Origin: Pelomyxa schiedti
Lineage: Eukaryota > Protista > Evosea
Reading direction: 5' to 3'
DNA: 64,000 nt
NCBI GenBank assembly: GCA_020536535.1
Contig: JAHLWZ010000571.1
Location: 1 to 64,000 of the forward strand
Shown piece by piece: positions 13,528 through 39,737 of this stretch. Made by a program: the position numbers and the translations under genes. Under the pieces are notes generated by a model that ran no database searches, was not told the origin of the DNA, and saw only the letters and a program-made list of their open reading frames with translations. Numbering within the stretch: the first letter of the stretch is position 1; each line of letters opens with the position of its first letter.

Positions 13528-15404
13528 ATGAACCCGTACAACCCGATGTATTCGGTCGTGGACCCATTCCAGCTCGGCCAACAACAACCACAGGCGCGTC
13601 CCAATTACACGTGCCCTCCCACAATGCCGCAACCGCAGCAGCCCCAGATGATGTGGTCCTCGCCCATGTACACCAACAACATCTACGGCACGAACCCCAA
13701 CAACGGTTTCGTTCAACCCTCGTATGTCGTACAACAACAACCACCGACACCAAATTATGGGTCCTACGCCCCCATGGCTTCCAATGTAAACGTTGATCCC
13801 TTGTCCTCGTACTTGAATCAACAGCAGCAGCAACAACAACAACAGCAACAACCACAACAGCAACAATATCAATATTCACAAGGAGGTGTATATATGTGTC
13901 AAAACAACACACAGTACAGTGGAGGAACTTGTATGCAACAAAACCTGACTGGGAGCTACACTTTGTCATCTCCTTTTAATACTTACGTAATGCCGGCCAC
14001 TACGGCGCAAGTGGCTACTCCCACACCCACAAGTGAGCCTGGTGCCGAAATGCCGACTACTAGCACTGCAACAACAACGGCGGCAGCAACTGAACTGGTC
14101 GAACCACCTGAACCTACTGCTGTGACTCTGCCGAACCCGCATCCATTGGATCAGGCAACTAATAACAAGCAAATTTGCCCGCTCCTGTTACAGGTTGGGT
14201 TTCTTTACACCCTCTTTTATGGAAATAGACTTTGAGATAACCGTAATGCAAAAGGGTTGGTGCCACTCATATCGCCATTTAACGAATCAATCTACCTATA
14301 TTCATCCTAGGGCTATGACTCGGTGCAAAAATGTTGACAAGGTTGAAGGTTCTTATTTCAGTGCCCACATATGGTAGCCTAAAGACATACAAAAAAAAAA
14401 AAGGAGGAAAATACATTGGCTGTACAAATCCATCATGCAAATACATGCACCCAAACCCCAAAAATAGAGATCATATTACTCAAATGGAGTCTATTATTCC
14501 AACACTTGGCACAACATATACCCCAGAAGTGATTGAAAAGAAGGTAAAATTTTCATCTGTCTGTTTTTTTTGTAATGCATAGCCAGAAACGCAACTGCAA
14601 ATTCGGAGTACTTTTGAAGATGAAAAGCCAAAGTATCACCATTGCTACATTTTATTCCTAAAGAAACTGTTGTCTCAGGATGCGATCCGTTTGCGCAAAA
14701 TCCAGCCAGTGGATGCTCTGATCCAAACTGTCTTTTACAACATGTTACTTGCCAACTCCTCGCCAATCGTCCGGCAACACCACCATCACCAACAGCAACA
14801 GCCACCCCTGCAAAACCGGCAGTACCACAGGCACCAATTCCCATGAGTATCGCTCCTGGAACGGCCAGTGATCTAGACTACGTACAACACCTCGTAGCAA
14901 GCCACTGCCCAGCAAACAACCAACTTAAAGTCACGGCTGTTCGCATCATCCAGGGGACTGTTCTATTTCAACGATACACAGCCCGCAAGAAGGCATTGCA
15001 AGCACAAGGAGGTACCTTCTAACCTTTGTCCAGTCAATTAATTAACTGTGTTCAGATGTACATGAGATATGGGGATTCCACGGAACAGGGGATGATGCAA
15101 TAACCGTACCTCCCCATCTTATTATCTCAACTCTCAAGACAAATTTCTAACATTATGAAAGGCAATTGCAACTACCGGCTTTTCCGTGGCACACCAAATA
15201 CACAACGCCTATGGCAAAGGAACCTACTTTGCCAACGACCCTACAGTAGCCCTGGGATACTGCAAAAGCAACCGCAACATCATTGTCACGAGGCTTCTCC
15301 TTGGAGGGAGTGCCAATGTAGACTACATATGGGCCAATTCAGTCAACTACTTCATCATTCCTGATCCCCAAGGATGCTTGCCTCTGTGGATCATGACCGT
15401 ATGA
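13528..15404 (+). CDS. PARP-family mono-ADP-ribosyltransferase with Q/P-rich N-terminus and CCCH-like zinc fingers (PARP-A)
   Basis: Fingers CTNPSCKYMHP and CDPFAQNPASGCSDPNCLLQH; ART motifs WGFHGT, AYGKGTYFA and VNYFIIPDPQGCLPLWIM (H-Y-Y triad). Confidence 0.88.
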
Positions 15405-15590: not shown

Positions 15591-18278
15591 ATGAGTACGA
15601 TTGAAGCACACAGACAGCGCATCAATGATTTCGTTCCAGGGGCCAATGCTAATGATTTCCCTCATTGCGCCGAGGTTTTTGATTTCTTTTTGTTGTTGTT
15701 TTGCAAGACGGACAACAGTAAAAATTAAAACCCAACAGGCGTTTAGTGGCCAACCAGAACAGAAAAAACGTCTAAGAGTTGCTGTGGTGGGTAAGACTGG
15801 GACTGGGAAGACTTCGTTGGTCAACACAATTGTCCGAGTTCTTGCAGGTAGCTCACTTGTACATACTTGCACACTGCTGTTTCCACTCCGTCGTTTATTA
15901 ATAACAAAAAATCAAAAGGAACTGGACCAGGGACTCAACCTCGGTGCCCTGTGCAGAACAGTGGTTCTGAAGGAACTGTGCTTATCGAAGATGTTCGCAT
16001 CTCCAAGGGCATCACTTTGGTTGACACAAGGGGATTCTTCACTTTAAGTTCTGCTGAAGGAATGGCTTTTGTGAGAATTATCGAGGGAATGTACCAGCAC
16101 GGTCACAAAGTGGAATGGGACCCTCAAGATGAATCTGTTGCAGATTATGTTAAAGCTAAACAAGTGATTGATGAACAGCGTCCTGCATTTAATAACGTAA
16201 GTTTGTGGTTTCATCACCTCCTGTTTACCTCGACAAGGGAGAAGAAATTCCGTACGTGGATCGCGTACATGCAGTAATATGGGTGCTGAATGCAAGTGAT
16301 CCGAGGCTGGCCAGCAACCAATACGTCAAGCCACTGGAAATTCCTCGAAACTGGTGCCGGATGTTGGGAATAGCTCCAGTTGTTGTGATCACTCATGAGG
16401 ACTCGATTACAACACCGCAACAACGAGATACTATCGCATCATGTGCTTCTTCTGCCTGCAGCTGTGCTCCTTCTGACATCTTTTTCATATCGAACTACAC
16501 TGCTGTTCAGGCGCGCACAAATAACAATACAGACCTCACAGTAATGCAAATACTAAATGCCACGATACATGCGGGACAGCGCTATATCAATTTGCATCCT
16601 CCTCCTCCCCCAGTAGTTCTCACTCTAGTGACCGTGACCGGGCCAGCACAGGAGAAACTAAAATTTAGAGTCCGACCCACTATGACTCTCAAAGAATTGA
16701 AAGTTAACATTGGCAGGCGGATCAAGGCAGATCCAACCACCTTTGCGCTTATGGAGCCTGATGTCTGTTCTCCATTTCTAAACTTGCTGATTTATTAGCT
16801 GTAGTTTGACGATGAACTCGTGGATTCAGAGAAAGTTCTTAAATGGGGAACTGAATTTAGAGTGATGGAAGGGTTTACTTACTCCAGGACCCCCCAGTAC
16901 TGGGGTGCAGATCCGTGGGGACCAACAGGTACAGAAATGCTATGCCTTCCTGAATTTTGCAGTAATTTTTTCAACAGGACACAGAGAAGTGGAGGTGGCT
17001 CAAGAATCGGATGAATTCAAGTTCATCAACTCATTGGTATACTCTTCTTACGAAAAGAACTCATCATCAAGTAACCCTGTTTCTATTTCACTATAATAAA
17101 TAATTGCCATTAATTAATACAACCTGCCTTTCCAACCCCATCATAGAAATTGGGTGCGTGAGGGGAAAATGGCCTGGTGGATTGAAAGTGAGAAGAGTGA
17201 TACGTATTCAAGACAGACTTCAGTGGGAATCATATACCAATTATAAAAAAATTCTGAGAGAAAGAGTGTCTGGAAATGCGGCAGCAAAGCCTTCATCCAT
17301 TTATCTCAGTAACAAACCAATGCAAACCCCACTCCTGGATCCATCAGTCAATGAATATCTTCTTTTCCATGGGTGCTCAAGTGAAGTTCTGTCACAACTA
17401 ACGCGAGAGGGAGCAGACTTCCGCGTGTCAAACGTCACAGGCATGTTTGGAGCAGGATTCTACCTCGCCGAAAATTCTTCCAAGTCGAACTGGTATATCC
17501 CCTGCTCCAGATGCCACCTCCCCTGCCGCCGTGAAGAAGAACACCCAACAAACACAACAACCCCAACCCCAACACCAACACCAACACCAACACCAACAGC
17601 AACAGCAACACCAAAAACAGGCTCCCCACCAACCACTTCACCTGCAACCAACCAAACACAGCAACAACAACCACCACCCCAGCCGGCAACAACTTCAACA
17701 TCGACTTCTGCTGCCACTTCCACCACTTCTTCCAGTGCCACTGATCCATCATCATCGTCCACCCCTTTTGAATACTTCGCCACAGCAAACCAAAACCAAG
17801 AAGCCGAGTTCGAAATGCACTCTCCCACCCATTATTGCCACTGCGCAGCCCCGGAAGCCGTGGAATGCAGCATGCTTATTTTCCGCGCGGCCCTCGGCGA
17901 CGCTCACATCTGTGATGCGGTATGCCTCACACCCAAAATCCCGTCAACTCTCACTCTAACTAACATCCCATCCCACAATCGCAGTACACAGCGGCGAAAT
18001 ACCGCGGGACCATGGCGGACCCGGTGCGCAAGCCGCCCACCAACGACGCGACGGGGCTGTCGTACGACTCCGTGGTCGCGGAGAGGTGCGACCAGTGCGA
18101 CGCGGCGAAGCAGGCCGCCGTGGCCCCAGAGAGGAACCCAAAGGCACGCGAGATTGTGCTGTACGCGAAGCACCAGGCGTACTCCGAGTACGTTGTAGTG
18201 TTCACCCGCAGCCCAGACGCCCTGCCGCAGCCTCTCCCTGCCCAACCGTCTTTCCTCACCAGGCTCTCAACATTCTAG
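15591..18278 (+). CDS. IFI44-like P-loop GTPase + ubiquitin-like domain + tankyrase-like PARP catalytic domain (PARP-B)
   Basis: GKTGTGKTS, LVDTRG, DRVHAVIWVL, PVVVITHED, DIFFISNY; Ubl KFRVRPTMTLKELK; ART LFHG, GMFGAGFYLAENSSKSNWY, AREIVLY...QAYSEYVV; splice phases checked as continuous from Ubl to PARP. Confidence 0.85.
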
Positions 18279-18458
18279 CTGTGCCCAATGTCCATTCAGT
18301 ACCTTGGTGCCCCTCAAAGAAGGTAACAATGGTTCCCCTTTGTAACTAAGCTTTGGCTTCTTGTTGCAACAGAATGATTTCTTGTAAAACAAACATCCAA
18401 GTTAGTCCTTCGCAAAACCAACCAAAAACCAACAGCGGCGTAATTATCAAAAGAGCAA

Positions 18459-20855
18459 ATGAGGAGTACGAACGGCAGTACGCTAAAGCCACCGACGCCG
18501 TCGACGCGCCAAAGATCGGCGTCCTTCGACTCGCATTCCAAGCACGTGGGGTTGCCTCCCCCGTCTACGGGAGCAACGGCGGCGAGGAATTATGGGACGC
18601 CTCCATCGAGCGCAGTCCTTCCAAGCATAGCTCCCGGCTCCATTCGGCACTCACGTTCGCCGTCATCGATGACAGCTTCGACGAACACCACGGCCGCTCA
18701 TCCTCCTCGACCTCAGCCTCAGCCTCAGCAGTATCAGTCTCAACAGTATCAATCATCTCAGTCGCCCCACTCCAAAGCGCCATCACCAACAACGAGCTCG
18801 GCAAAGTGTACCACTGCAGTGAGCAGCTCCGGCGGGGAGAATTATGGGAGGCAGCAGCCCTCGTCGTTTGAGTTCACGTCGCAGAGCCACCCGTCCCTGG
18901 TGCCGTGGCTGCGGCCGCGGGCTCCCATAATGGACCCGGCGGGCGGGTCGCTGTCCTGGCCCACCGCGTGGCACTTTGCCGTGTCGCGGAGGTTTTCCCG
19001 CGTTCCGCACGTGGCCGAGGTGTTTTCGATGATGCGCAGCGTGGATGACGTCACCACGCTCACCAAGGTGGTGGCCCATTTGGCCCCTGAGGTTTCTGGG
19101 GAGGATTTCAGGGAGTCTTTGTACCAAGGGATGGTGGCACAGGCAAATTCAGATGGCCTGATGAGAGATATTCTCTTAGAGACGCTCGGTGCAAGGGACA
19201 TTATCTTCAAGGAAAGCCATGGAATTTGGGGAGTGGGAGAGGGAACCAATGAACTGGGAAAATTGGTCCTCAGGCTGAGGGACAAGTTCTACCCCAAGCG
19301 AAAGGCACTCCTGTGCAATTTCGATAACACTGTAAACCTCCAGTCTGTCGTCGATCTACTTCGTGCAGGAGCAAGGCAATCTCACTTGTCAATTGACGCA
19401 GTCTGCCAGTATCTCCATTTGTCAAGCTACAAGAGGTATATTATGAAATGAAGTTTATTCAACTTCTGAATCACTTTAGCATTCTTTCATCCGAGTTCTC
19501 GGGTGGCCCATATGACCTGGCAACTCTTTGTCTTAATGCTAATGAAACCAGGCTATCGATTAATGAGCCTGATAGCAGTGGGATTGGGTTTGGCCCGTTC
19601 TATCGCAAACTGCGAAGGTTGACAAATAATCAAGTGGCAGTGATTATTTCTGGGGACAGCACGCCAACACCTCCTGGCGCTGAGGTGCCACTTTCCCTGT
19701 GGGTATGGGAGAAAATAATGTCTCAATTTCCCGGGACTGAAATAGCACAAGTTGATGGAAGACAAGGCATTGTGATGTCATGGGGATCGCAGTACCGGAG
19801 TGTGCATATTCACACAGTGGCTCAGTGGCTAGCTTTGCCAAGTGAGCCTGTGGCATCTTTCCAGCAGCTATTTGCAATGAGCATCAATGCCAAGCATCGA
19901 AGCAGCGTGCCAAGTGCTTCAAATGAGTCTCACATCACACAGCTGACAAGAGAAATCACAAGCTACATCGCTGGCAATACTACTATATCAACTGTAAATA
20001 TTGCATTTATTGGCACGCATAGACTCTTCCTCTCAATGTTATATAGACTTATACCCATGTATTGATTTTTTCGCTATCAGAAGCCCCACAAACATTTGTA
20101 CAGGTTCCCCACACAATATTCACGTTCCAATTTACCAAAAGATGTTGCAAGATTCCAACTTACGGAGGCAATTAGTCTGGTTACACTGGCAATGTGCCCA
20201 ACCAATTTCCATGCTGCTGTAACAATAATGCCTTGCAAGGAGGCCGAAACCTCCAATTTGCAAAAATGGGCTAGTGCCAAGCGTATAATCAAAATATTGC
20301 TCTGTGAGCATGACAATACAGATATTCATTCACTCCCAGACACATTTCTGGTCAAACAAGTTCATTGGAATACAGAAAATTCATCTGCTGCAGTGATTTG
20401 CCTTTTGCGGGTACTGTACCCTTTTTCAGCAAATCGACCATTACACTGATTTGTTTTCTAGGCCCTCCGAGCGGCACTCTTTCACGCCAAGAATTTTCTT
20501 CACCAACCCCAGAACCAACAACACCCAGCATCACCACCCCAACAGCAGCAATCACCGCAAACCGTTACACAACAAGCAGCACAAACCATGGTACAACAAC
20601 CCAAAATCCAAGTTGTATATCAACAGCAAATCCACACAATCCCAATTCACTCATCAGACTCGATTCTCAAAGTGAAGGAATCCGTTTGTGCCAGGCTATC
20701 CTTGGACCCCTTGCAGTATTACCTTGGTGACTCTGTGTGTACCTTCAGTCAAAAAAACCCAAACAATTTACATTCTCCAGAATGCTGCTGAGTTCTGTGG
20801 AGAGGACTCTGTGCAATCAACAGGCACCAAAAACTTTATTTTGTATCAATACTAA
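18459..20855 (+). CDS. Multidomain protein: degenerate NADAR (YbiA-like) + alpha/beta domain + degenerate IFI44-like domain + ubiquitin-like domain
   Basis: WPTAWHF...DILLETLG...IWGVGEGTNELGKLVLRLRDKF follows the NADAR consensus; C-terminal IQVVYQQQIHTIPIHSSDSILKVKESVC is Ubl-like; central exon joins uncertain. Confidence 0.7.
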
Positions 20856-20904
20856 ATGGATAGAACAACAAAATTTCCTTTTCTTTTAAAAAAGCTTTTG
20901 TGCT

Positions 20905-23900
20905 TCAAGAGACCTGGAAATTGAAGAACGACGCACAGTGACCCATGGAAGCCACAGTCACGAATTGCAATCCACTAATAGCGAACTTATCATGCAATGA
21001 TACACTGAAGTGATTTGCACAGTTCTCCAGAGTCACAATGCCTTTGTGCCCATTGTATGTTATCCTGTAGCCAACGGGACCCTATCATTTGGTTATTGGT
21101 TAGTGCTGGGAAAAAACAAGGGGAATTTTTCAGTGTACATACAGACATAAGAACATTCTGGAACATTTCAGAGAACGGTGCGTGAACAATGAGGGGTGAT
21201 CCATGCGGAGACAGTCCCTTGCATACCCAAGATGACCTGTCTCTGCCAGTGAGCAAGCCAACTGTATAACAGGAGTTGGGTCCCATGTGGTTTTTGCTGG
21301 AATGGGTTTTCTCAGGGCTTTTGGTGATGCAAATTCTGAATGACATTACATTGGTTTTTGTGAGGTGATTATTGTGCTACCTGATATCGGACCCTACTGC
21401 TTCGAAGAAAATTGTTCCTTGCCCCTTATGTTTCATTCTAAGAGGTATCACAGTCTCCTTCTTTCCCTAGATTTCTGTTGGAAGAAACTTTGGGTATAAA
21501 TTAGACAGACAGCGTACCACAAGGGCAAATTCAAACCCAGTCCGTTGAACATGTGGTGTGACCACCGCCGAAGTCCGCTTTGGGAGCATGAACTTCATGG
21601 CCTCTGGAAGTACCTCTGCTTCAGTAGGCACAACCAAAATAGTTTCCCCTGGTCTGTCACGAAAGGCGTGGCGGAGACGAGTACTGACGGTGTGCCCAGG
21701 ATCGCCAGCATCCAGCGCATCCAGGTCTTTTTGGCAGATAACAATTTTTTCCACATAGGAAAGTGGAACAGTACTGGGCAGGTGCCCCTCGACACAGATA
21801 TGTGGGTCCTTTAAAAGTTGCACTGGGTTATTTTTGATGGTCTAGTATCTTGAAAGTACTTGGTGTGTATAGGAATGTTTAATCTGTTCAATACTATGTC
21901 CTTTAAAGCGTTCTTGAATTGTTGCAGCAATAAGTTCATCCCATCCCTGAAGATGGTTAATTGATTTTCAATGCCTGGAGAAGATACATCAATAGCAGCA
22001 GTTGTTTTCGCTCTATGGTAGGTTTCTACCTCCCCCGGCTTTGGAGGATAGTCTATGTATCCCGTTGCTGCATCGACATTTAATTTCCGGTAGGTTTACA
22101 GGTAGGCTCATTTGAAACCTGCATGTGGAGACATATTGAAATCTGGGTGATACATAATATCTTGAGAGAAAACAAGCACAATATTCCCATATCCATAGGG
22201 CCTACACAAGAAATTAGTAAAAATTGCAAAACACTTTAAACCTCAGTGTTGGCCCAACAACAGTGAAAACTTGATCATCTGTGCCCTGCTTCCATGAGCA
22301 ATACTTATAAGTTGATTTTAAAAAAATACCAAAAGGGTATCTTTACAGTAGCCAATTCCCTGAGTCATGTTAGATGCAACAGTAGGATACAAATAAACCT
22401 TTGTTTGATGGGTTTTTACGGTTTCTGCAACAGAGAGTACCATTTGTTTGAGTTGTGCACTCTAATAAATTTGAGAACAACAAACAAGGTAATCAAAAAC
22501 TTACTGAATCACGTCCAATTAGTGTGTCTACTTTCGATCTTGTCACCTTGGTATCCTTCTTACTCACGTGAATCCCTTTGAGAAGCACCGATTTCAGCAG
22601 TAACTTAGCCCATGAACTCACTGGTTTATGGGTGTCAAATCCAGCTGCGTGTCTGGCTAAGAAATTTCTGATTGCGGCATGTTGGTACACCTAAGGGAGA
22701 TTTTTATTTAGTTTGTGCTAATAGTAGCTCCTACCTCCTGTAAGGCAGCATAATATGGATTTTTCTGAAGGTATTCTTGGAATTTTAAGCTTACAACCAC
22801 CCCATGTTTCACTATCAATTTCATGACATCAGGCTTGCAACGGTGCATTGGTCTAAATTTCCGTACCCAGGAAAGAATTTTTGGATTGACAGTTACTCGG
22901 CCACCTTTCGCAAGGTAAGAATTTGTATTTACAAATTTCAGTAGCAATCCTTACCATTAGCTTGATTAAGGGAACTGAACATTGTCTCTTTATTCCCATA
23001 GAAGTCAATGCTCTTATTCAACATTCGTATTTCACAGATAGGTATATTGGATGCGGGGTGGTCATACTCCATTCGATGGTGCACAGACTGAGGCATATGT
23101 ATATTAAGACTACATAATGGAATAACATACCTTATCAAGACAAAAGATGCCATATTTGCATTGCCTCCGCAAATCACGCATGTGTGGGTGAGAAAATTGT
23201 TGCATGTGAATTCCATCAGCCATTTTGGTGCAATGGGTACCAAATCTGCACTAGAAAAGGTTAAATAGGGCTTGGCACAGTGGTAACCCTTACCATCTCT
23301 CGTTCAGCATGTGTGAATAAGTTACAGTGCCTTCCATCCCCAAGTTTGTTGCACTGGGCGCCATACCAGCAATGGTGACTGAACATGGTAGTATGATTGT
23401 CATCAGCAACCTGATGATATTTGATTTTAGTTTAACTTGATCAGTTGCAAAACGTTAGACCTTGGTACAATTTGGCTGAAACGTGCATGGAGGTAGGAAT
23501 GGGTGTCTAAAATTCCGAAGGTGCAATATAATTTCTGCAGGAGTCAAGGCTATATTCCCAGGAATGTAGGCGCATGTCTTTCCAAACTTGCAATCAGTTT
23601 GTGCATGGCGATACTCCCTGCAATGTGTTTCTCCAGTTTCTCGGCAGTCGGGGCCATATCGACATGGGGGTGGATGGGAGTATTTCTCAGCATGGGAAGG
23701 TGAATAAATAGTACAAGCCCCGGCATAGACACAAGGAGGAGGGTGTAAAAACTGTGAGCAATGGTGCGGATTGTTTATATCATCACATAGTCCTGCATAT
23801 CTGCAAGCTGGGGGATGGCAAAAAGAAACCATATGCTCTCTGGGGATAGGAAATGAGAAGAGGTGGGCAAATTCAACACGCACTTGCTGTTTAGATTCCT

Positions 23901-25578
23901 GCAATTAGCACCAAAATCACACATTTTCGGGTGTTCGAATTCTCTGCAGTGTGTTGGATCTGTCATTAGCTTGCACAAACCCCCAAATCGACATTGAACT
24001 GGGTGAAAACCCAGAATATTTATAGGGTTAATGACAAAGCTATTTAAGACAGGGCTTGTAGGCATTGCAACGTTACTGGCAATAAAGAGGTCTGGTGAAC
24101 GTCTGGAGGCAACTAAATAGGCTTGATTCAGTTGCAATTCAGGGATCTATGCAAGTTAGGCTCTATCAGTTAGAGTTTGGGTGAATCCTCACAATAGTCG
24201 GAGGGCACTGAAATACATCACAAAAAACTTGAAGGTTCCCACCCTGAGGGGCATTAATGTCATCGTAAATGCCAAAGCATATTCTTTTGAAGTATTTTGC
24301 GTAGGCTCTGATTGCTTCACAAAAGAGCAAAGCAATATGGCGAGGTGGATTTCTTTAGGTGGCATTAGGACTGACAAAATAGAAGGAAGTAGTAAAACTT
24401 GAAGGCGCCGCATCCAAAACTACCAAGCACTAACTCAGTGAAGCCAGAAGCTGCAGCTATATGGAAAATCGAGCATATCTTGGCATAGGTTTCACTTGCT
24501 TCAGGCTCTGCAATAGTGCCTGGTGCACTAAGAGCAGGCCCTTTAATTGCCGCAACAGCAATGAAGTCCAGAAGAAGAGGTCTGTTTCCAGTCAGGTGAA
24601 AGAATATGATGGGAAGAAGAACGTGGCCAAGAATGGATATCCTAATCTTTCAGAACCCCTGAATACAACAACATTTTGGGATATGGTTGTTCCAGTGCTG
24701 GGGATCGGATACTGGACTGATGGCGGAGGGGCACCAAAATCAGAATCAATAGCTAACCAGTAGTTGGATCTTCTCATCAAACTTTCTTCTTGTGCCCCTT
24801 TGATCTCTTAAGTGCATGCCAATACAACATGAAAACTTACAGTGTCCCCGTTTGAAACCCCCTCCAGGGCTTGTGCTTGAGGCCATATTAAGAACCAGGG
24901 GCCTAGACCCAGGGTTATCTAATATCATTTGGACAGCCACTTCAACTGAATCGGCGTTGAAAATCTGAACAACTAAAGTTCATTAAACCTTGATTAATCA
25001 TAGTTCGAACTCAATAAATACCGGGAGATACGCCTAAAGGTGGAGGGGGTAAGGGTGACAACTGCCAATTAGGGCACATTGCGGTATTTAACTAATTAAC
25101 AAGTGAGAACAGGAGAAATTGGAGAGTTTTACCGGCGAAGTGCAAGAACGAAGCGTAGCTTTATTCAATTGGATTAAAGTGGAGGGAGCAACAAAGTAGG
25201 ATCCATTATTAACAGCGCTCATAGTCTGTAACATGATGGATACCAGCATACGATGGCAGGTATTCTTATCCCCAGAAGCTAAAGCAAAGAAATGAGAAAT
25301 AAGACCTTCCCTCTTTATGGCTTTCTACAAAAGGAAGGTCGGAATACCGCGAGCTTGGGCAGAATGAAACTGGAAATAGGGAAGCCAACACTCAGGTACA
25401 TGTGGCATCCCCATTTGTACATAGGGGTGTTGCTTCTTGAACTTCCACACATTCAAGCAGTTGAAGTCTATCTCCTCATACCTTAAACGCTTCGATGTCA
25501 AAAACGAAAAACGAAAAAAACACAAAAGAACAAAGGTAAGCCATCGGCGCACCAGAGTTGCTCGGACGTTGGCTGCAT
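20905..25578 (-). CDS. Bacterial-type PARG (DUF2263 macrodomain) + ~10 PBZ zinc fingers + putative DarT-like ADP-ribosyltransferase domain
   Basis: Spliced LNMASSTSPGGGFKRGHW-AQEESLMRRS, VVVFRG, LVLGSFGCGAF..NPPRHIA; repeated Cx[FY]GxxC..H...[FY]xH at ~23050-24000; C-terminal MHRC...VVS, DDQVFTVVGP, YGNIVLVF, VEGHLPSTVPLSYVEKIVI. Confidence 0.85.
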
Positions 25579-25847
25579 GGTTTCTTGTTTAATTCAAGTT
25601 GTTTTTTTTTTGTTGTGCCGCCGTCGGACGCCGTGACAGTGGGGCTTTAAAACTTGTTCTGTTGTTGGCTGCACGCCCAACTTCGGGGGAACTTCCCTCC
25701 AAGTTGTTGTTTTCCGGTAAAACGAAACGCGTTGGTCCAGAAGCAGGAAAACACACAACAAAGAAACACACCACACCGACAAGGTGTTCAGCGTTTTATT
25801 ATTGGCGAGGGGTCCACGCCTCATCAAGTTTGTCTTCAAAACAAGCA

Positions 25848-27999: not shown

Positions 28000-29930
28000 T
28001 GATTTGTAGGAGTTACCGGAAACTATGCAATCATATCACTGGGAAGAACATTGATCAGAAAGGACCATCAAAGAAGCTTTTGATGAATTTGAAAAACTAA
28101 CTGTACACCATCTTGAAGGTCAACAGTTACATCACCTGGCAAATATAGACAAGAACGCGGCAAGAAGATTGTATACTTTGTAAGTAAATTTCGAAGGAGA
28201 CATCTTACATTCTTGTTTAATTACAAAAATTTGTTTAGATGGCAAGGTGGGAATAAAGTACGTTGCTTATGAAGAATAACAATCCCACCTGGGACTACAA
28301 TGAGATTGAAGTCAATCTACCAGTCTGATAACATCCTGGAGAATTATTACTTGCTGAGAAGTCCAAAGAAGGAATCATACATGGCATCTGCGCACAATCT
28401 GCTCTGTGTTTCATACCGGAGACTACAAGTGCGGCAATTGGAGTTACTAATACAAGGGAAGCTCCTATTCGACTGTACAAGGGCCAAGCTGAGCACAGAT
28501 CGGAAAGGATGCATGTAGCCCTCAAATGGAAATCCCAGCTAAGAGGTAATGGAAGCTAGAAACGAGTAGGATCACTTGCAGTCAATGAGATTAACATTAA
28601 CAAGATAGATGATAATTCAGTACCAAGAGAAATTGGAAGATCAGATTACGTTTGAATGAGTACCAGAAATATCAGCTATTGAAACTCCTCAATACTGCAA
28701 AGTTTTCGTGGTAACAGCACAAGAACTCAGAGAAATAAAGGGAGTCGAACACGTAATGTACCCATCAATGTGAAAAGACATACAGTGAACCCTGGAAAAC
28801 GTAAAAAAGAGAAGGAAGAAGCACAGAAAAAAACTACTTGATACAGGTGTGTGGCTAGATACAGCAATAGCCCATACTCAGCACCTGTTGTTCTTGTAAA
28901 GAAGAAAGACGGTTCAATTCGCTTATGTGTTGCGTATCGACACCTCAACACAATCACAGTTAAGGACAGATTTCCTATGCTCAATGTCATGAGTACAACA
29001 CATCTATTCTCCTGAACCTAGAAATGTGAAAGAGTTACAAAGATTTCTTGGTATAACTGGATACCACAGGCTGTTCATCAAAGACTACACCATCAGCACC
29101 AACACTCTGGTCAAGAAAATGTCTGGAGACTGGAAATGGGGTAGAAAAGAAAGAATTGTATTCAACGACTTGAAGCAAACACTGTGCCAGAATTGATGTT
29201 AGGACATCCGAATTGGAATTTACCATTTAACCTAGAAACTGACATCTCCAAAGCTGGAATCGCTGCTATATTATCACAGGGAGTTCCAAAGACCAAAGAA
29301 TACAGAATCATTGGATGCTGGAGCAGAAAGTTGAAGAAGTACGAACAGAATTACCCTATTACAGAATTGAAAGCCTTAGTTGTTGTTTGTGGAATTGTTC
29401 CATTCAAAGGATACTTGGAAAATCACCCATGGCTACTTCATTGTGATCATGCAGCATTGGTAAGACTGGATGATACCACTGATAGTCATTATTGATTATC
29501 TGCAGCAAGATAAAGTTAAACCCTCAGAAGATATTCTGTGGAAACTACCTTGGTATTTCATGGAAGATAATTTGTTGAAATATGTACACATAGAGGAAGT
29601 GATATAGGTTTGAAGTCAGACTGCTGTTGTTCCACATGAGCGGAGATATCATATATTCTCTTACTACCATAACCAGAACTACATGGATTTATGAATACTA
29701 TAGAAAACGTCAATGCGCCGTCACTCACAGACCATTGGAAGAGTTGAGCAAGTCAACAGTAATCTACGAAGAGCTCTGAAGAAAAGGGATGAACGCAGCA
29801 CTATTTGGGATAAGCTGACACCTGCAATTGTCTACGCACACAATACAGCTCCGAACACAACTACTGGTCTAACATCTTATTCTACGGTATTCAGAATGGA
29901 AATTTGAACCTATTGCAGGGTTTATGAAAG
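28000..29930 (+). mobile_element. Degenerate Ty3/gypsy LTR-retrotransposon pol remnant
   Basis: RT N-terminus [27 protein letters not shown]; RNase H FNLETDISKAGIAAILSQ...YPITELKAL...CDHAAL; integrase QTIGRVEQVN...YAHNTAPNTTTG; order RT-RH-IN; stops, frameshifts and deletions; no LTRs recognised. Confidence 0.88.
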
Positions 29931-30406
29931 TGGAAAGAGAGATGCTCATACGTTTATGAAGCAAGTGCCAACGGAGTTGGGAAATCGCCAATGAGAATTT
30001 CATCGGGGAGTTTGTTTGTGCGCCTCTGCGTGCCATCGCCGGTATCAAGTAAGATACCGTTCATTGGGACCGCAAATACAACGGCCCACGTCACGACCCA
30101 CAGTTTGGTGTAGGGGTGTCTGACCCCCTCGGGTTTCCACAGAAATAATGCAAGCAATGAGTGATGGCGAATCCTGTCAAGTTTCACTGTGGACTGCCGG
30201 CACACCCATGTACATAGCTGAACTCCAAATTGAAGTCCACTCAGACAACCAAAACAACAAGCGGTACCCATGTGCTATTTTCAACATCTTGGGTAAGTGA
30301 CTTCTGGAAAAAGACGAACTTGGAAGTTGTTCTGCAAACACACCAAGCAAGTAAAACCTCGGGTGTAAACCAACTAGACTCAAAGCGGCGCTCGCAACGA
30401 ACAAAG

Positions 30407-32467
30407 ATGATGAACGTGCGTACAGTGGACGAATTCCACGCCGTTGTTGTCTCGTGTCAGTGCCATCAACGTCAGGTTTTGTATCGTCATATTGTTCAAC
30501 TCACAATTTGCTGAGGTTTTTGTTTTGTTTCTGCTTGTTCGGTTTCCCACTTCGTTGCGAGTTGGCTGTTCTAACAATAAATAACACCGCAACAAAACAG
30601 AGAGGCAGATGCACTCTTGAGGGTGTTCGACAGAACTTGACTGCACTTGGCGTGCCCTACCCGCAAGAGTGGCTGACCGAAGTGCTAAATAGGTAAGTGT
30701 AAGCAACAACAGAACGAAAAACTTAGCTTTCTTTGAGGCAGTACCGCGAGTGCAACAACATATTTTTAACCAACCTGCACGCTGGATGGACTGCTGATTC
30801 AATTGCCAATCGGATGATCGATGGTCCAATCAGTGATCCTAATGGTCCCTTTTTCTGCATGGAAACTATCACTGCAGTAAAAAGCCAGGTATTACTTGTA
30901 GTTATGAAATTCTTCTTGCCCTGATAGAACCTTAGTACCAAATGGCTACTCAAATTTCTCCACCTTCAACAGCTCCCATTTTATTTCCACCTGTAACCTC
31001 CAATTCTTTCCCCCCTACTTACGCGCCAGTTAACCCACTGATGACTGCCATCACTGCTCAGGTTGCCCAAATGACTATTACACCAAACACCACCGTAGTA
31101 TCGCCGGTGCTCCCACCACCAAGTAAACCATCAACTATAGCACCCCCACGGGCCACGCCTCCTCCCACCAAGAGGCCTTCAACTCCCCCTTCAAATCCTC
31201 ATCCAGCAACTCCTCCAATCACTCCTTCTGTAAAACCAGTTGTAGAAGCCTCCCCATCACTTTCAGCGGCTCCATCATCTGGAAAGCTGCCCCCCTCTGA
31301 GCCCCCTGGTGAGTACTTTGCTGTTCAACCTAGCCCAGGTGAGTATTTCAAGACTTGTCCTCATCACGAACGCGGATATTGCAGGCTTGTTAGATTTTAT
31401 TCTTTTACTGAATAACCTTCTATTAGATTTGTAAATTTAGGCCATCAACAATGTCCAGAGGGAGGCCATAGCTCAATTTCCACCCAAGTAATGAAAGCCA
31501 CGTTGACACCTCTTGTAGAAAATACAGGTTTCACTTTTCTTGGAAGTTGCTTGGGTTTCTTACTCACCCTTCACCAAAGCGCACTTCAATCAGATCAGAG
31601 AAAGTTTTATAAATGGAATGAAAAAAAAGTTTGCAGCAGTGAAGGTCTGTAATCACCTTTTTTGACACCAAACTAAAATGAAACAGGTCGTTAAAATTGT
31701 GTCGGTAGAAAACAAGAATTTGCGGTCTGCATTTGAGGCAAGATGTGAATATCTTGCCCAAAAGCGTGGTGGTCCTCCACGGATCGCGCAAATGTAAACC
31801 TGAATTTGCCTGATTCCCAACTCTGAACTCTTTTCAGGTTCCACGGCACTGCTGATGCATGTGTCTCGATTATTTGCGATCAGGGCTTCAGTCCTCCTTC
31901 TGACCGAGCCATGACCAAATCTTGCAGGTTCCCAAGAATTCCCTTCATCCAATCTGCAGCGAAAAATACTGACTTCTCTCAGAGCCTTCACAGGAGGCAA
32001 ACTCTCATCGACGTGCCTAAGCGATTCAACGTGTCCTGGGTGCACTGTGAAGCACTCATGGAACACGTGCCACATGTATGGCCTCGGATCCTATTTCGCC
32101 GACATCGCAGGCAAGAGTCACGCATATGTCAGCGGGGCCAGCGGCCCCGAGATGAAGATGCTGCTGTGTGAGGTGGCACTGGGAAGATCCTTTGAGATAA
32201 CGACCAACCTTACAACGGGGAGCCAGTATCACGACTTGGTTCTCCCGCCACCGCTCCCAAATTCCACCCAGACAACGGACAGCATTTGGGTGCCGGGAAG
32301 AAGCGACGCAACGAGTGGTTTGGGAGTGTTCACCTCAGAATGTGTGTTCCCCTTTTTTTTTCCCCTTCCTTCATTTCGTTGAAGTGAAACTCACCTCGAA
32401 ATTAGGTATCATTTTTCATCGATACCAAGCCTTACCTCGCTACGTGATACACTACGTTATCTCTTGA
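30407..32467 (+). CDS. PARP-family ADP-ribosyltransferase with N-terminal domain, Pro-rich linker and CCCH finger (PARP-C)
   Basis: FHGTAD, HMYGLGSYFADIAGKSHAY, MLLCEVALG, spliced FTSECIIFHRYQALPRYVIHY (H-Y-E triad). Confidence 0.88.
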
Positions 32468-33247: not shown

Positions 33248-33379
33248 TTGGTATCGATGAAAAATGATACCTAAGTTTCNNNNNNNNNNNNNNNNNNNNN
33301 NNNNNNNNNNNNNNNNNNNNNNNNNNNNNNNNNNNNNNNNNNNNNNNNNNNNNNNNNNNNNNNNNNNNNNNNNNNNNNN

Positions 33380-33718
33380 TCAGCGGGGCCAGCGGCCCCG
33401 AGATGAAGATGCTGCTGTGTGAGGTGGCACTGGGAAGATCCTTTGAGATAACGACCAACCTTACAACGGGGAGCCAGTATCACGACTTGGTTCTCCCGCC
33501 GCCGCTCCCAAATTCCACCCAGACAACGGACAGCATTTGGGTGCCGGGAAGAAGCGACGCAACGAGTGGTTTGGGAGTGTTCACCTCAGAATGTGTGTTC
33601 CCCTTTTTTTTTCCCTTCCTTCATTTCGTTGAAGTGAAACTCACCTTTACATTTAGGTATCATTTTTCATCGATACCAAGCCTTACCTCGCTACGTGATA
33701 CACTATGTTATCTCTTAA
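33380..33718 (+). CDS. 3' exons of a second PARP-C copy, beginning at the assembly gap
   Basis: Near-identical to 32129-32467 (MKMLLCEVALG...YVIS*), with a different stop codon and 3' flank. Confidence 0.8.
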
Positions 33719-34010
33719 CCGTCAAAACGACCTGTTCTTAGACCCCATACAGAACAAAAACTTCAATTTTATTTGTGGTCTTGTTTACTTCAGCGCTAGA
33801 GTCCTTGTCCCCAACTAACACCAACATCCAATTATCTGACCCACCAAGTTGGTCAATAAGGGTTCCTTAGGCATAATTGGAACAAACGATCAACGAAATT
33901 TTAACAAGCGAAAATGCAGGCCATAGCTACCAGTGTGGGTAGTGCTCTTAAGGGCTTCTGGTCCTCCGACGCTGGTGCCCACCTCTTTATTTATTTTTTC
34001 GTAACCGTTT

Positions 34011-36309
34011 ATGTCATTAGGTGCGCTGCCCGAATGTGGGATGGAACGAAGGGTGTCAGCGAATGACGGTGACACTTCGTGCACGGAATTTCCGGGTTTG
34101 TTTTATGCGTTGGTTGGAATGGCGCTCGGTGACAGTCTCGGGGCACCTTTTGAAAACAAGGACCCGCGAAACATCGCGGCGATGTGGCCGACGGGCTCAC
34201 CGTACCCATCATCGTTGCACCCGTGCGGTCTCATTTGGACTGATGACACTCAGATGTCACTGAGCTTCATGGAGGTTTACATGACGTATGTGCTTTAATG
34301 ACCCTCACTGTGGCTTTACCTTTCTTTTTTTTGGGTTTGGGAATCACCATCATTTCTAAATTGGCGTGAAGACATAAGAAAATGGATATCGTCGCTATAT
34401 GGAAGATATGGGCTGAGGCCTCCAGAATCAAATTATTTGAGCAGAACGGACAGCCGCTTGCTAGGCAACAATTTGGACTTTTCCGAGGGACTGGGAAAAA
34501 TTTTAGGCAGTCTGTTGATACAGCAATAGCATCCAATTTTTCAAGTAATTGTTCCTCCCCCTCGTAAGTGCTTCACCTCAATCCTTTCACTTTCAATAAT
34601 TCTTTTTTTATCTTTGGAAGAGCTGGAAATGGTGCAGCAATGCGAGTGACACCCTTGAGTGTTATTGCATTTCTAAAAAGAGATGAAGGCTGCCTTGCAG
34701 AAATGATTTTCGTTACTTCAACGATGACACACCAATCTGTAATGGGCATTGCTCCAGCATTCTCGTTTGGTTACACTTTGTATACACTTATGGACAATCC
34801 TTCACAATCAGCTCAAGAAGCATTCCAAAAAATTGTTGCTGCAACAAGGAAGTTTGAAGACTATCTTGAATCAATCTTCAGAGCAAAGTACTGACTTCTT
34901 TCCATTTGGAGTTTTTTTGATGACTATATAGAGATACCTCTTATTCTACCTTTTTGGGATCTCTGCTTGACGGTATGTTTGGAGAAACATCCCCAACAAG
35001 TCCCAAGGACAAGTTTTCTCTTGCACAAAGGCGTATAGTAAATTTTGCTTCAATGGTTACACAGAAACCAGTAAGTGCCTTTCTTTCTTTGGCTCGTTTT
35101 CTGATGACAGAAGATTCAATCTCCAAATGATGGTCTGGCCGTTGCTTCAGTTACCACCGCCATCGTTGCTGGCCTATTATTCAAGCATCAACCATTTCTT
35201 GGCACCTTACAACTTGTGTACCAGCTGGGTGGGGATACTGACACTGTGGGTGCCATGTTAGGTATATTGTCACTAAGTAGGTAACATTTTTAAATTTTTT
35301 TTTACAAGGTGCAATTCTCGGGTGTTCACACTCAAATATATCTTCTTTTATCACCAATCAACTTATCTGCTCCACTGAACTACTCAAGTTCTTTAAATCC
35401 TTTATTTCTGTGGTTTCTTCCAATCGTCCCCTCCACCATTTACCATGGATTGACCTTGAAAAAAAAGTGGTACAAGAAATCCTTTCATTTCCCAATGGTA
35501 TGAGAAACAACCACTATAATAGTACAAGTTCTGGTGGCAGGTATGAAGTGAAAACAAAAAGATATGACTTCTCATTATCATAAGGAGATACAATGACAAC
35601 AGCTGTGAGTACTTCAGTGAGTCAACACCCACATACTTCTCAAATTCCGGCAATAGCTATTTTGACACAACCTCACCATGTTCAAATCCTGCACAACAGA
35701 ATTTAAGCACCACCACTTCACTGAGTACACAAACGGCCCTAACAACACAACAACTAGGCGCGCCAGGTCAGACACTTCTCACCCCACAGGGTAACACAGG
35801 GCAATGCATTATCTCCAACACCCAAAACACCCCAGCACCGGGAACTCCTATCAGCCACTTTAACTCACAGCCACAAACTCCTCCTCCAAATGGCTCACAA
35901 ACACAAACAAGCAGTTTATACCCATCAACAAGTGTTTTCACATCTCGTGATGATGCAATGGATGGGAGCAGCAGAACCTCAGAAGTAAACGTCGCCTTTC
36001 AGATACATTACATTGACTGCAAAGGTACCAAAAGCCCAGCACCCTCCACAGCAGTAATTCACAACAATACCAGAAATGTACATTTGGATACACAGTGAGA
36101 AGTGTCCTCGCCCTATGTCAGATGATCCAGAAAAACCCCATTACTGGGCCACTATGGTACAGATACCCGCGGCGACTGATGTGCTGTACCATTTTATAGT
36201 TCGCAAATCCGACGGCTCTCAATTGTGTGAGGACGGTGCTCACTCCTTGAGAGTTGCTCCCGGGAAAACAATACTGATAAAATCAGTGGAGTGGAACAAA
36301 TTCAGCTGA
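34011..36309 (+). CDS. ADP-ribosylglycohydrolase (ARH/DraG family) with C-terminal CBM20-like domain
   Basis: LVGMALGDSLGAPFE, WTDDTQM, AGNGAAMRVTP, LGGDTDTVGAMLGAILG; last exons VNVAFQIHY...YWATMVQIP...YHFIV. Confidence 0.9.
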
Positions 36310-38831: not shown

Positions 38832-39737
38832 TGTTGGTTGGTTTTTTCGAAAGGTGTTCTCGAAACGGCAAGACGTTTTTCTGGAGAGTTCAAATCACTT
38901 GGGAAGGCCAAGTTGGTTTTGAAGGGAAGAAGTTGTGGGCACACCATGGGTGTTAGTTTGGGTCTTTTCTTTCTCCATCTGCTAATTGCTCATTGAAAAA
39001 GGGGTTCGAAATTGGTTTTTTGGTTCAAACCCAAAGCTTCTACAATGGAGCCCTCTAATTGTAAATTTTTAAGCTCCAAATGAGAGAAAAGGAAAGATTG
39101 TATTGGATACTTACTTGACTATACATAAATCAACAGGAGCACCAACAGAACTCACGGGTTCATTTGTCAACAGCCTCATCTCTGTGCTGGATGACAAGGA
39201 GTTTGAACCCCCAATTGGGCCTGTAGAACCCCAAAGGCCTTCTGGTGGGACAAACTCTACACCAGCATCATCGACAACACTGCGGCTCACCTCCGCAGAG
39301 TCACCACCAACACTGCACCCTAGGGGATGATGGATTCAGGCATCATCCTTTAGATTATTGTAACTCACCTGTGAACCAATTAATAAATATTGTTTGATGT
39401 AAAAATGGAAAGCTATTTTTCCTTTTTGACAAAACAAATGAGAGGTGTGTAAGAGTGGTGGTCTAGGAGAGGGACGTTGTGGACTGAATAGTGTTGCTGT
39501 TCTCATATGTTTGTGTTTGCTTATATAACAACTTTGTCTTAACTATTTACACGATACAGAGGGGGTTTATAAGGTGGGTCGGTTGGCTGGTGCCTGTTAG
39601 CTTGAACGCACTCGTTCCCGTGAATGACCATAATTAGTTGGCCAACTTGGCGCCCAATCACCGCGGCGAGATTCCCTGAATCCATCGGCCATCACTCCTC
39701 ACAGGTGCATTAACACGAAGGTCTATTGACAGCACAA

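Follow-up and report, generated by a model that had tools for sequence, protein, structure and literature searches.

SopF, OspC and DarT are mono-ADP-ribosyltransferases (mono-ARTs); SopF and OspC/CopC modify proteins, and the known antitoxins of DarT are DarG and NADAR, not PARG. The residues described as required for SopF activity are Y224, Y240 and E325 (PMC11937434). CopC is reported to use an H137-F183-E325 triad together with D172, F207 and H327, and to need D230 for riboxanation (PMC9239266), whereas DarT is reported to need R51 and to use H119 (PMC9967889). Among proteins that act on poly(ADP-ribose) (PAR), bacterial-type PARGs are described as carrying a GGG-X6-8-QEE signature (PMC4245714), and the PARG of this class named DrPARG is reported to leave Glu- and Ser-linked mono-ADP-ribose in place (PMC6445106). 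PARG with several PBZ repeats is already on record from Adineta vaga (PMC4245714, citing its ref. 18), in an account whose passages on this protein do not mention a transferase or lectin-fold domain after the PBZ array. Here we describe a gene of Pelomyxa schiedti in which a PARG domain and a PBZ array are followed by a predicted ART-fold domain, and we compare that domain with SopF, OspC/CopC and DarT.

The gene lies on the minus strand (25578..20905) of a 64,000-nucleotide stretch of DNA (the window) and comprises 25 exons, which join into 3528 nt encoding 1175 residues with a single terminal stop. Its features, and those of a neighbouring gene, are as follows.

20905..25578, minus strand: whole gene, encoding in order PARG, ten PBZ fingers, an ART-fold domain and a lectin-fold domain (spliced model, RNA contigs, identity to database protein P0001)
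24229..25237, minus strand: bacterial-type PARG macrodomain, residues ~68-330 (TIGR02452/PF10021 profiles, signature, RNA-supported intron)
23058..23993, minus strand: ten PBZ-type (zf-CCHH) fingers, residues 394-645 (motif scan, Pfam, shuffles)
21590..23045, minus strand: unannotated, predicted ART-fold domain, residues ~650-1000 (conservation, AF2 model, fold and profile comparison)
22845, 22341, 22267 and 22191, minus strand: ART-domain residues H700, D826, F836 and Y848
22122, 21802, 21790 and 21784, minus strand: ART-domain residues A871, H930, E934 and H936
20908..21538, minus strand: predicted lectin/galectin-type beta-sandwich (Methyltransf_FA-like), residues ~1018-1175 (fold comparison)
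18930..19286, plus strand: degenerate NADAR-like segment in a convergent gene (Pfam 23.7 bits against a cut-off of 35.1; YbiA comparison)

Single-cell RNA contigs, from four runs of one sample in one study, confirmed 19 of the 24 introns as GT-AG joints; the remaining five are placed by their GT-AG ends and the reading frame, and their lengths are in no case a multiple of 3. The spliced model equals P0001 (1175 residues, titled 'TIGR02452 family protein [Pelomyxa schiedti]') letter for letter, an agreement to be read with the fact that the P0001 annotation is not independent of the DNA analysed. Among the RNA pieces listed, no single contig spans PARG to ART, exon 1 is without cover, and ~24346-24557, 24146-24196, 23634-23690, 23221-23480 and 22556-22569 are unbridged, gaps that in themselves prove nothing. 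A candidate short poly(A) form lies at 24888. The original prediction that a single polypeptide joins a PARG to about ten PBZ fingers and a domain of ART fold is borne out by the spliced model, the RNA joints, the domain matches and the predicted fold, and the four C-terminal motifs that it quoted all lie in frame within the spliced protein.

The PARG domain scores 97.3 bits against TIGR02452 (cut-off 50) and 63 bits against PF10021 (E 5e-17; cut-off 23.5). Its signature, GGG-FKRGHWA-QEE (residues 162-174), is interrupted in the DNA by the RNA-supported intron 24798-24840, with E173-E174 ending at 24784; it is intact and rebuilt across the intron, as had been proposed, with a spacing of GGG-x7-QEE rather than the proposed x6, which conforms to the published signature. 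Signature and fold family are common to this domain, TcPARG (3sig) and DrPARG (5zda), and it is likely to hydrolyse PAR. The PBZ pattern C-x-[FY]-G-x2-C...H-x3-[FY]-x-H occurs seven times with a strict G and ten times, in keeping with the roughly ten originally predicted, once that third position is relaxed; shuffled versions of the protein, 1000 in all, had no more than one match each (mean 0.005), and Pfam zf-CCHH matched four stretches (31.1 bits, cut-off 22.7). PDB sequence searches, whether started from the protein or from the family profile, matched only PARG and APLF, the latter through its tandem PBZ sequence (E 0.002). APLF has two fingers, whereas the Pelomyxa protein has ten, some of which carry A or Q in place of G and may be degenerate.

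Residues 650-1175 match nothing in Pfam or NCBIfam; PF14487 (DarT) and PF12294 (SopF) matched neither P0001 nor any of 39 alignment members, and PF00644 (PARP) found no match in the ART-fold domain. An AF2 model of residues 650-1175 (pLDDT 88, pTM 0.90) matched SopF (Z 10.9, 216 aligned, 4.3 Å) and DarT (Z 10.1, 175, 3.4 Å) in its ART part. Because Foldseek searches of PDB and BFVD with this two-domain model were filled by lectins, a single-domain model of the ~30% identical relative P0043 (pLDDT 93) stood in for the Pelomyxa domain. NAD-using ART-fold chains fill the best nine of its 48,161 rows: SopF (Z 11.2, 204 aligned, 4.2 Å), DarT (10.6, 172, 3.4 Å), Mtb DarT (10.3, 173, 3.8 Å), CopC (9.9, 203, 4.4 Å), Tpt1 (9.9, 108, 3.0 Å), T. 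africanus DarT (9.8, 168, 3.5 Å), DarT1 (9.7, 179, 3.9 Å) and OspC3 twice (9.7 and 9.1, each 187, 4.0 Å). Taken by group, the ranges are Z 11.2-11.3, 200-204 aligned and 4.0-4.2 Å for the Salmonella effector SopF (DUF3626/PF12294; 7dn8, 7dn9), Z 9.7-10.6, 168-179 and 3.4-3.9 Å for the DNA ADP-ribosyltransferases DarT2/DarT1 (7omv, 7yk3, 8baq), and Z 9.1-9.9, 187-203 and 4.0-4.4 Å for the arginine ADP-riboxanases OspC3 and CopC (7wr5, 7xn4). In Foldseek, SopF was the sole match below E 0.001 (E 4e-4), and DarT reached E 0.4 or worse; PARPs were absent among the best 50 VIA rows and reached Foldseek E 2.4 or worse, a result that does not exclude PARP kinship. The check originally proposed for the C-terminal region, structure prediction with Foldseek and profile comparison, thus predicts an ART fold with a conserved His...aromatic...Glu site. 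By Z, SopF and DarT share first place with less than 1 between them, and CopC and OspC3 follow closely; the fold by itself therefore does not tell which class of substrate the domain uses.

Behind the ART-fold domain, residues ~1018-1175 are predicted to adopt a lectin fold (Z up to 13.8, 129 aligned, 2.4 Å; Atlas 0.96), a fourth domain overlooked in the original prediction. PF12248 matches six of 39 relatives but not Pelomyxa's own C-terminal domain. Its place in the chain is the one that the substrate-binding ankyrin domain takes in OspC/CopC, and it may accordingly act as a selector of substrate or location.

Against 17 SopF-like DUF3626 proteins the family profile gave an HHalign score of 36.9 over 143 columns, at a pairwise E of 3e-4 and a probability of only 40%, compared with a maximum of 26.4 in 50 block-shuffled controls and with 23.2 over 23 columns, within the shuffle range, for ten DarT genes; the OspC profile, four near-identical sequences and too shallow for a fair comparison, gave no significant match. 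By profile, SopF/DUF3626 is the closest. In that alignment F836, Y848 and E934 fall on SopF Y224, Y240 and E325, an aromatic-aromatic-Glu NAD site in register, and the two also have in common an S/T-P ahead of the acceptor position and an E-[AG]-H. They differ in the first strand (His in the family, Asn in SopF) and after the SP (Ala in the family, Asp in SopF), and identity is 11-14%. SopF is a secreted effector, whereas the Pelomyxa protein is encoded by an intron-rich eukaryotic gene and has its ART domain fused to PARG, PBZ and a lectin fold.

CopC H137, F183, E325, D172, F207 and H327 are paralleled by H700, F836, E934, D826, Y848 and H936, which are kept in 64, 61, 61, 65, 58 and 60 of 65 members, respectively; these equivalences are drawn from motif register and one profile alignment. 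The catalytic-position Glu that had been singled out earlier is E934. Such near-invariance of Glu, His, Asp and the aromatic pair at ~30% identity across lineages, and the existence of members without PARG, make it very unlikely that the domain is a non-catalytic NAD+ or ADP-ribose binder and the protein a targeted PARG, a reading to which the loss of the Glu in 4 of 65 members and the Leu at residue 719 of P0001 (Arg in 43 of 65) would lend themselves.

With OspC3 and CopC the family has in common the H-F-E triad, the first Asp, [YF]G, E-x-H-[IL]-P and a separate domain C-terminal of the catalytic one, and D826 stands 10 residues before the Phe, compared with 11 in CopC. These likenesses could point to non-canonical NAD+ chemistry, either arginine ADP-riboxanation of the OspC type or NAD+ hydrolysis, yielding an ADP-ribose messenger or depleting NAD+ in defence. 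We regard this as quite improbable: at the position that corresponds by spacing to the second essential Asp, CopC D230 (23 residues after F207/Y848; Asp in SopF, His119 in DarT), 60 of the 65 members carry Ala, and the ankyrin domain is absent, its place taken by the lectin fold. Together with invariant residues of the family's own (T831, H862-P-D864, T873 and H930), the Ala suggests that the acceptor chemistry may differ from that of SopF, OspC/CopC and DarT alike.

The same register bears on the original view of the domain as a DarT-like enzyme acting on nucleic acid, gated by PAR or restrained by the macrodomain as a fused toxin-antitoxin unit. DarT, while tied with SopF by Z, superposes with the lower rmsd (3.4 against 4.2 Å); it also has the first-strand His and the catalytic-position Glu, the G-I-G-Y segment resembles DarT genes, and PBZ proteins are described as often acting at DNA damage (PMC4245714). 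In motif register, however, the catalytic Arg of DarT, R51, and its thymine-locking His, H119, fall on L829/G830 (Arg at 830 in 3 of 65) and A871, leaving them without counterparts, and a large helical insertion further separates the two. The likeness to DarT therefore stands for the ART fold and the conserved Glu and not for DarT specifically, since Foldseek and profile favour SopF, and a nucleic-acid target is not supported as first put forward. The predicted NADAR-like neighbour does exist at 18930-19286, but it scores below the Pfam cut-off, and W, R and I replace the E, K and E that are conserved in YbiA; it is probably not a partner. DarT pairs with DarG or a working NADAR, and the macrodomain fused here is of the PARG class, which is not known to serve as a DarT antitoxin. 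Members with an intact ART and a dead or absent PARG further weaken the toxin-antitoxin idea, and we hold the DarT-like reading as a whole to be unlikely. A complex prediction for the PARG and ART domains, run without alignments, scored 0.00, which has no bearing either way.

Architecture and NAD-site residues are conserved across distant eukaryotes. Clustered at 50%, relatives of the ART domain number 242; named ones are found in amoebozoans, discobans, a fornicate, a malawimonad, a CRuMs flagellate and bdelloid rotifers, and the family is expanded in bdelloids and Diphylleia. A PARG-like domain occurs in 39 of 151 ART proteins, Pelomyxa included (38 of the 39 with PBZ), and in 35 of the 38 with at least 500 residues ahead of the ART domain; an independent Pfam check found PARG in 19 of 33 chosen long matches. 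The PARG motif could be aligned in 34 of the 39, all with EE, and the ART Glu is kept in 30 of the 32 PARG-motif proteins with a complete ART domain. In two Diphylleia paralogues every ART motif residue is present and the PARG signature is lost, one Naegleria member has ART without PARG, and P0041 fuses WWE to the ART domain; fusions to LRR-Roco, RING, WWE, PARP or a second ART suggest roles in signalling or defence. A FastTree tree of the ART domain (65 of 151 sequences, midpoint root) is weakly supported at its deep nodes, and no conclusion on origin or on the direction of transfer was drawn from it. In tblastn with P0043, plasmids gave chance-level matches only (E 5-9) and phages none; the ART profile reached at best E 0.25 against 7989 frames in 160 prokaryotic and viral PARG loci, and an ancestral PARG-ART operon was thus not seen there. 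PF06128 (OspC) matched in 0 of 401 sampled genomes, where the control was silent as well. A literature search found no paper on the ART domain, and the recurrence of the same fusion across distant protists and rotifers points to a likely unstudied family of eukaryotic writers.

The reading that we tentatively favour, at a little short of an even chance, is that of a mono-ART which is recruited by PAR and acts on protein: the enzyme would trim PAR and write a mark of another kind. The PBZ fingers would tether the protein to poly(ADP-ribose) from the cell's PARPs, the PARG domain would trim these chains, and the predicted SopF/OspC/DarT-type transferase domain would place a single ADP-ribose on a nearby protein, converting one ADP-ribose signal into another. 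NAD+ would be bound through H700, F836, Y848 and E934, the acceptor would be protein rather than nucleic acid, the product mono rather than poly, and the role possibly one in stress or defence. The mono mark would be unlikely to be undone by the PARG domain, because DrPARG failed on Glu- and Ser-linked mono-ADP-ribose.

Against this, a PAR-specific reader and eraser on a writer fit a PAR-making writer equally easily. The ART would then be a non-PARP poly(ADP-ribose) polymerase in a self-contained cycle, its product bound by the PBZ array and limited or reset by PARG, as the PAR-directed nature of the recurring partners (PARG and PBZ; WWE in P0041), the catalytic-position Glu in 61 of 65 members and its frequent co-retention with the PARG EE might suggest. 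We nevertheless consider it doubtful: the closest solved relatives are mono-transferases, the domain has no Pfam PARP match, the two Diphylleia paralogues retain ART despite a dead PARG, and three PARP catalytic fragments within the 64-kb window indicate other sources of PAR. In its boldest form, and with a similarly low probability, this reading would make the protein the first representative of an ancient eukaryotic family of PAR polymerases that are not PARPs but come from the SopF/OspC/DarT branch. Each member would carry its own reader and eraser, and protists and bdelloid rotifers would thereby possess a second PAR cycle of independent evolutionary origin.

With writer, reader and eraser in one chain, the wiring is directly testable by single point mutants (PARG E174, ART E934). 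The closest solved structures belong to bacterial toxins and injected effectors, whereas the Pelomyxa family is native, intron-bearing and present in several deep eukaryotic lineages. Because residues at the likely acceptor side are invariant and peculiar to the family, its chemistry may be new. A family of this type would bring to eukaryotic ADP-ribosylation a further class of writer, invisible to Pfam, and would explain what the long tail of bacterial-type PARGs in eukaryotes, so far unaccounted for, is doing.

The studied gene lies on the minus strand, where six-frame reading showed short exons across 20800–25700. One sample supplied four single-cell RNA runs, whose contigs, mapped to this stretch, gave 19 distinct GT-AG joints of 39–69 nt, which together with five predicted introns yield 25 exons, running from 25578 to 20905 and encoding 1,175 residues without an internal stop. 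A one-exon query returned a single protein, 'TIGR02452 family protein [Pelomyxa schiedti]' (hereafter P0001), whose sequence is identical to our model; it is an annotation of the same DNA, and hence no independent proof. In two runs, cDNA 5′ termini fall at 25412–25413, with a template-switch oligo in RNA contig X1, so translation may in fact begin at Met34 (25408) and the annotated first exon may be wrong; the domains are the same either way. At 24888 (minus strand), inside a PARG exon and 26 nt short of the GGG motif, X1 ends in a 23-nt poly(A) tail for which the genomic sequence offers no A-run; this is either premature polyadenylation or an artefact.

Domain and sequence searches identified residues ~68–330 as a bacterial-type PARG. 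Residues 394–645 contain ten PBZ-type (ADP-ribose-binding) zinc fingers, seven with a strict pattern and ten with a relaxed one, and 1,000 shuffles gave at most one match. The original prediction of an intact PARG signature rebuilt across an intron (RNA-supported) and about ten fingers stands, except that the spacer is x7 (GGG-FKRGHWA-QEE) rather than x6, within the X6–8 spacing defined in the available text of PMC4245714. That text states that several PBZ repeats had earlier been recognised on a PARG of Adineta vaga, and the PARG–PBZ half of the architecture was therefore already known.

Residues 650–1175 have no Pfam or NCBIfam match. A phmmer search of 1.84 billion representatives found 242 relatives with E values no higher than 0.001; P0001 and the 150 listed among them (151 proteins) formed the family set, in which many short matches are probably fragments. 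The AlphaFold2 model of this region (39 sequences) has pLDDT 88 and pTM 0.90. Its last ~155 residues, overlooked in the original prediction, form a predicted lectin/galectin-type sandwich (best Z 13.8, 129 aligned, 2.4 Å), near Methyltransf_FA clusters in language-model features (0.96), and the preceding region, as modelled, resembles the structures of SopF (Z 10.9) and of DarT (Z 10.1). Because lectins crowded the structure-match lists, P0043, a single-domain relative, was folded on its own (pLDDT 93). Of 48,161 chains compared with it, the nine top-ranking rows all have the ADP-ribosyltransferase (ART) fold, with unrelated helical rows from Z 8.2, and a second structure comparison gave similar results:

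SopF: Z 11.2, 204 aligned, 4.2 Å
Thermus DarT: Z 10.6, 172 aligned, 3.4 Å
Mtb DarT: Z 10.3, 173 aligned, 3.8 Å
CopC: Z 9.9, 203 aligned, 4.4 Å
Tpt1: Z 9.9, 108 aligned, 3.0 Å
T. africanus DarT: Z 9.8, 168 aligned, 3.5 Å
DarT1: Z 9.7, 179 aligned, 3.9 Å
OspC3, two rows: Z 9.7 and 9.1, 187 aligned, 4.0 Å

Conservation was counted in the 65 of 151 listed proteins spanning the whole ART domain (overall identity about 30%). Kept residues are H700 (64 of 65), R701 (59), S718 (60), D826 (65), T831 (63), F836 (61), G840 (64), Y848 (58), G849 (63), H862-P863-D864 (61, 61 and 57), A871 (60), H930 (62), E934 (61), H936 (60) and P938 (64). A non-catalytic binder seems very improbable.

By Z, SopF and DarT come out level in these predicted structures, whereas Foldseek with the P0043 model separates SopF (E 4e-4) from the best DarT (0.4). 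HHalign scored the ART family at 36.9 over 143 columns against 17 SopF-like DUF3626 proteins, 23.2 over 23 columns against ten DarT genes (a set of similar depth) and 20.3 over 33 columns against four OspC copies, a set too shallow for this purpose. When the SopF-like set was block-shuffled fifty times, scores reached at most 26.4 (mean 16.3), and known ART pairs score 12–14 against each other. SopF contains DUF3626 (available text of PMC6682159), and the seed of the SopF-like set matches SopF at E 8e-47. The profile alignment places F836, Y848 and E934 on their putative counterparts SopF Y224, Y240 and E325, which are needed for activity (accessible part of PMC11937434). The CopC site (H137-F183-E325, D172, F207 and H327, as given in the accessible part of PMC9239266) appears to be paralleled in motif and spacing by H700-F836-E934, D826, Y848 and H936. 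CopC D230, 23 residues after F207, would correspond to A871, 23 after Y848; here SopF has Asp and DarT, judged by motif analogy, H119. An Atlas feature search returned unnamed bacterial clusters (0.92) and DUF3626 and OspC (0.90), a result of value only as a lead. Despite the CopC-like motif, we regard riboxanation or NADase chemistry as distinctly improbable. DarT R51 (available text of PMC9967889) would fall on L829/G830 in motif register, where Arg is rare. The DarT-like writer originally proposed survives in its predicted ART fold and the tie by Z, but Foldseek and HHalign favour SopF and R51 has no counterpart in motif register; a DarT-like nucleic-acid ART is unlikely. The domain is ART-like in the predicted SopF/OspC/DarT manner, yet a member of none of these three.

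Profiles built from the family proteins themselves detected a PARG-like domain in 39 of the 151 (the best 150 of 242 plus P0001), 38 of these also with PBZ fingers, and the lectin fold in 46 of the same set. Among listed proteins with at least 500 residues before the ART, 35 of 38 bear the PARG-like domain, and Pfam finds PARG in 19 of 33 chosen long matches. The organism was named for 12 of 30 relatives looked up, all 12 eukaryotes (Pharyngomonas, Naegleria, Euglena, Kipferlia, Gefionella, Diphylleia (four), Mastigamoeba, Copromyxa and Rotaria). Several relatives are single transcriptome-assembly ORFs holding PARG and ART together, which is the strongest evidence for a genuine fusion at the mRNA level. 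PARG-bearing members are scattered through the ART tree, in which deep support is weak, and the PARG and ART sites are usually kept together (30 of 32 members). A strict need for both is argued against by Diphylleia P0005 and P0013, in which the PARG signature is lost but every ART motif residue retained, and by Naegleria P0010, where PBZ and ART occur with no PARG; paralogues could act in trans. Other ART fusion partners are LRR-Roco, RING, WWE, EF-hand/PARP and a second ART; P0024, P0062, P0015 and P0114 join the ART to LRR-Roc-COR, EF-hand plus PARP, a second ART and a protein kinase (the last by eye), respectively. Five viral contigs (L083–L085, L087 and L157; 1.8–2.5 Mb) encode a bacterial-type PARG with 35–38% identity to that of the window, and no ART of this family lies within 5 kb of it.

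The window also contains the following features:

541–1602 and 30355–31415, plus strand: similar gene starts with shared motifs and a CCCH-like finger, about 30 kb apart
14624–15404, plus strand: PARP catalytic-domain fragment (Pfam E 2e-5)
15595–16798, plus strand: P-loop GTPase-like gene (weak Pfam P-loop matches only)
17104–18278, plus strand: PARP catalytic-domain fragment (Pfam E 6e-9)
18350–20791, plus strand: convergent gene holding a degenerate NADAR-like segment, catalytic residues replaced
18930–19286, plus strand: the NADAR-like segment, scoring under the Pfam cut-off
28700–29950, plus strand: decayed LTR-retrotransposon remnant, RT-RNase H (Pfam E 1e-19)
31915–32382, plus strand: PARP catalytic-domain fragment (Pfam E 7e-8)
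34005–34894, plus strand: ADP-ribosylglycohydrolase (ARH) gene exons (Pfam E 7e-10 and 6e-7)
38313–38894, minus strand: matrixin/M57-like zinc-metallopeptidase (HELGH motif; GC-rich, intronless)

The similar gene starts appear to be a local paralogue pair, and the GTPase-like gene resembles IFI44-type GTPases. The PARP fragment at 31915–32382 has a near-duplicate at about 33268–33741, adjoining an N gap, and the ARH gene is a further ADP-ribose gene of the window. The NADAR-like neighbour noted in the original prediction is present, but in an alignment to YbiA the conserved E, K and E are replaced by W, R and I, so that a working antitoxin seems unlikely; its gene is possibly a pseudo-enzyme. 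Residues of this kind are needed in NADARs (accessible part of PMC11543638).

Going further than the gene, the order of its domains, the conserved motifs and the predicted folds, we infer a scheme that we hold tentatively, at slightly under an even chance: the PBZ fingers would bring the protein to PAR, the PARG would trim it, and the predicted ART would write mono-ADP-ribose on a protein, perhaps selected by the lectin-fold domain. DrPARG fails to remove Glu- or Ser-linked mono-ADP-ribose (available text of PMC6445106), which argues that the PARG is not an antidote to this mark. That the protein is instead a PAR polymerase outside the PARP family, carrying its own reader and eraser, is rather improbable. 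In the mostly open-access literature covered, including the accessible main text of PMC8883491 and PMC9503650, no paper describes the eukaryotic ART domain of P0001, and the PARG–PBZ part alone of the fusion was previously noted; the domain could already be listed in supplements to comparative-genomics work on ART families. We rate the domain as a eukaryotic family new to the ART superfamily and part of a conserved eraser–reader–writer fusion.
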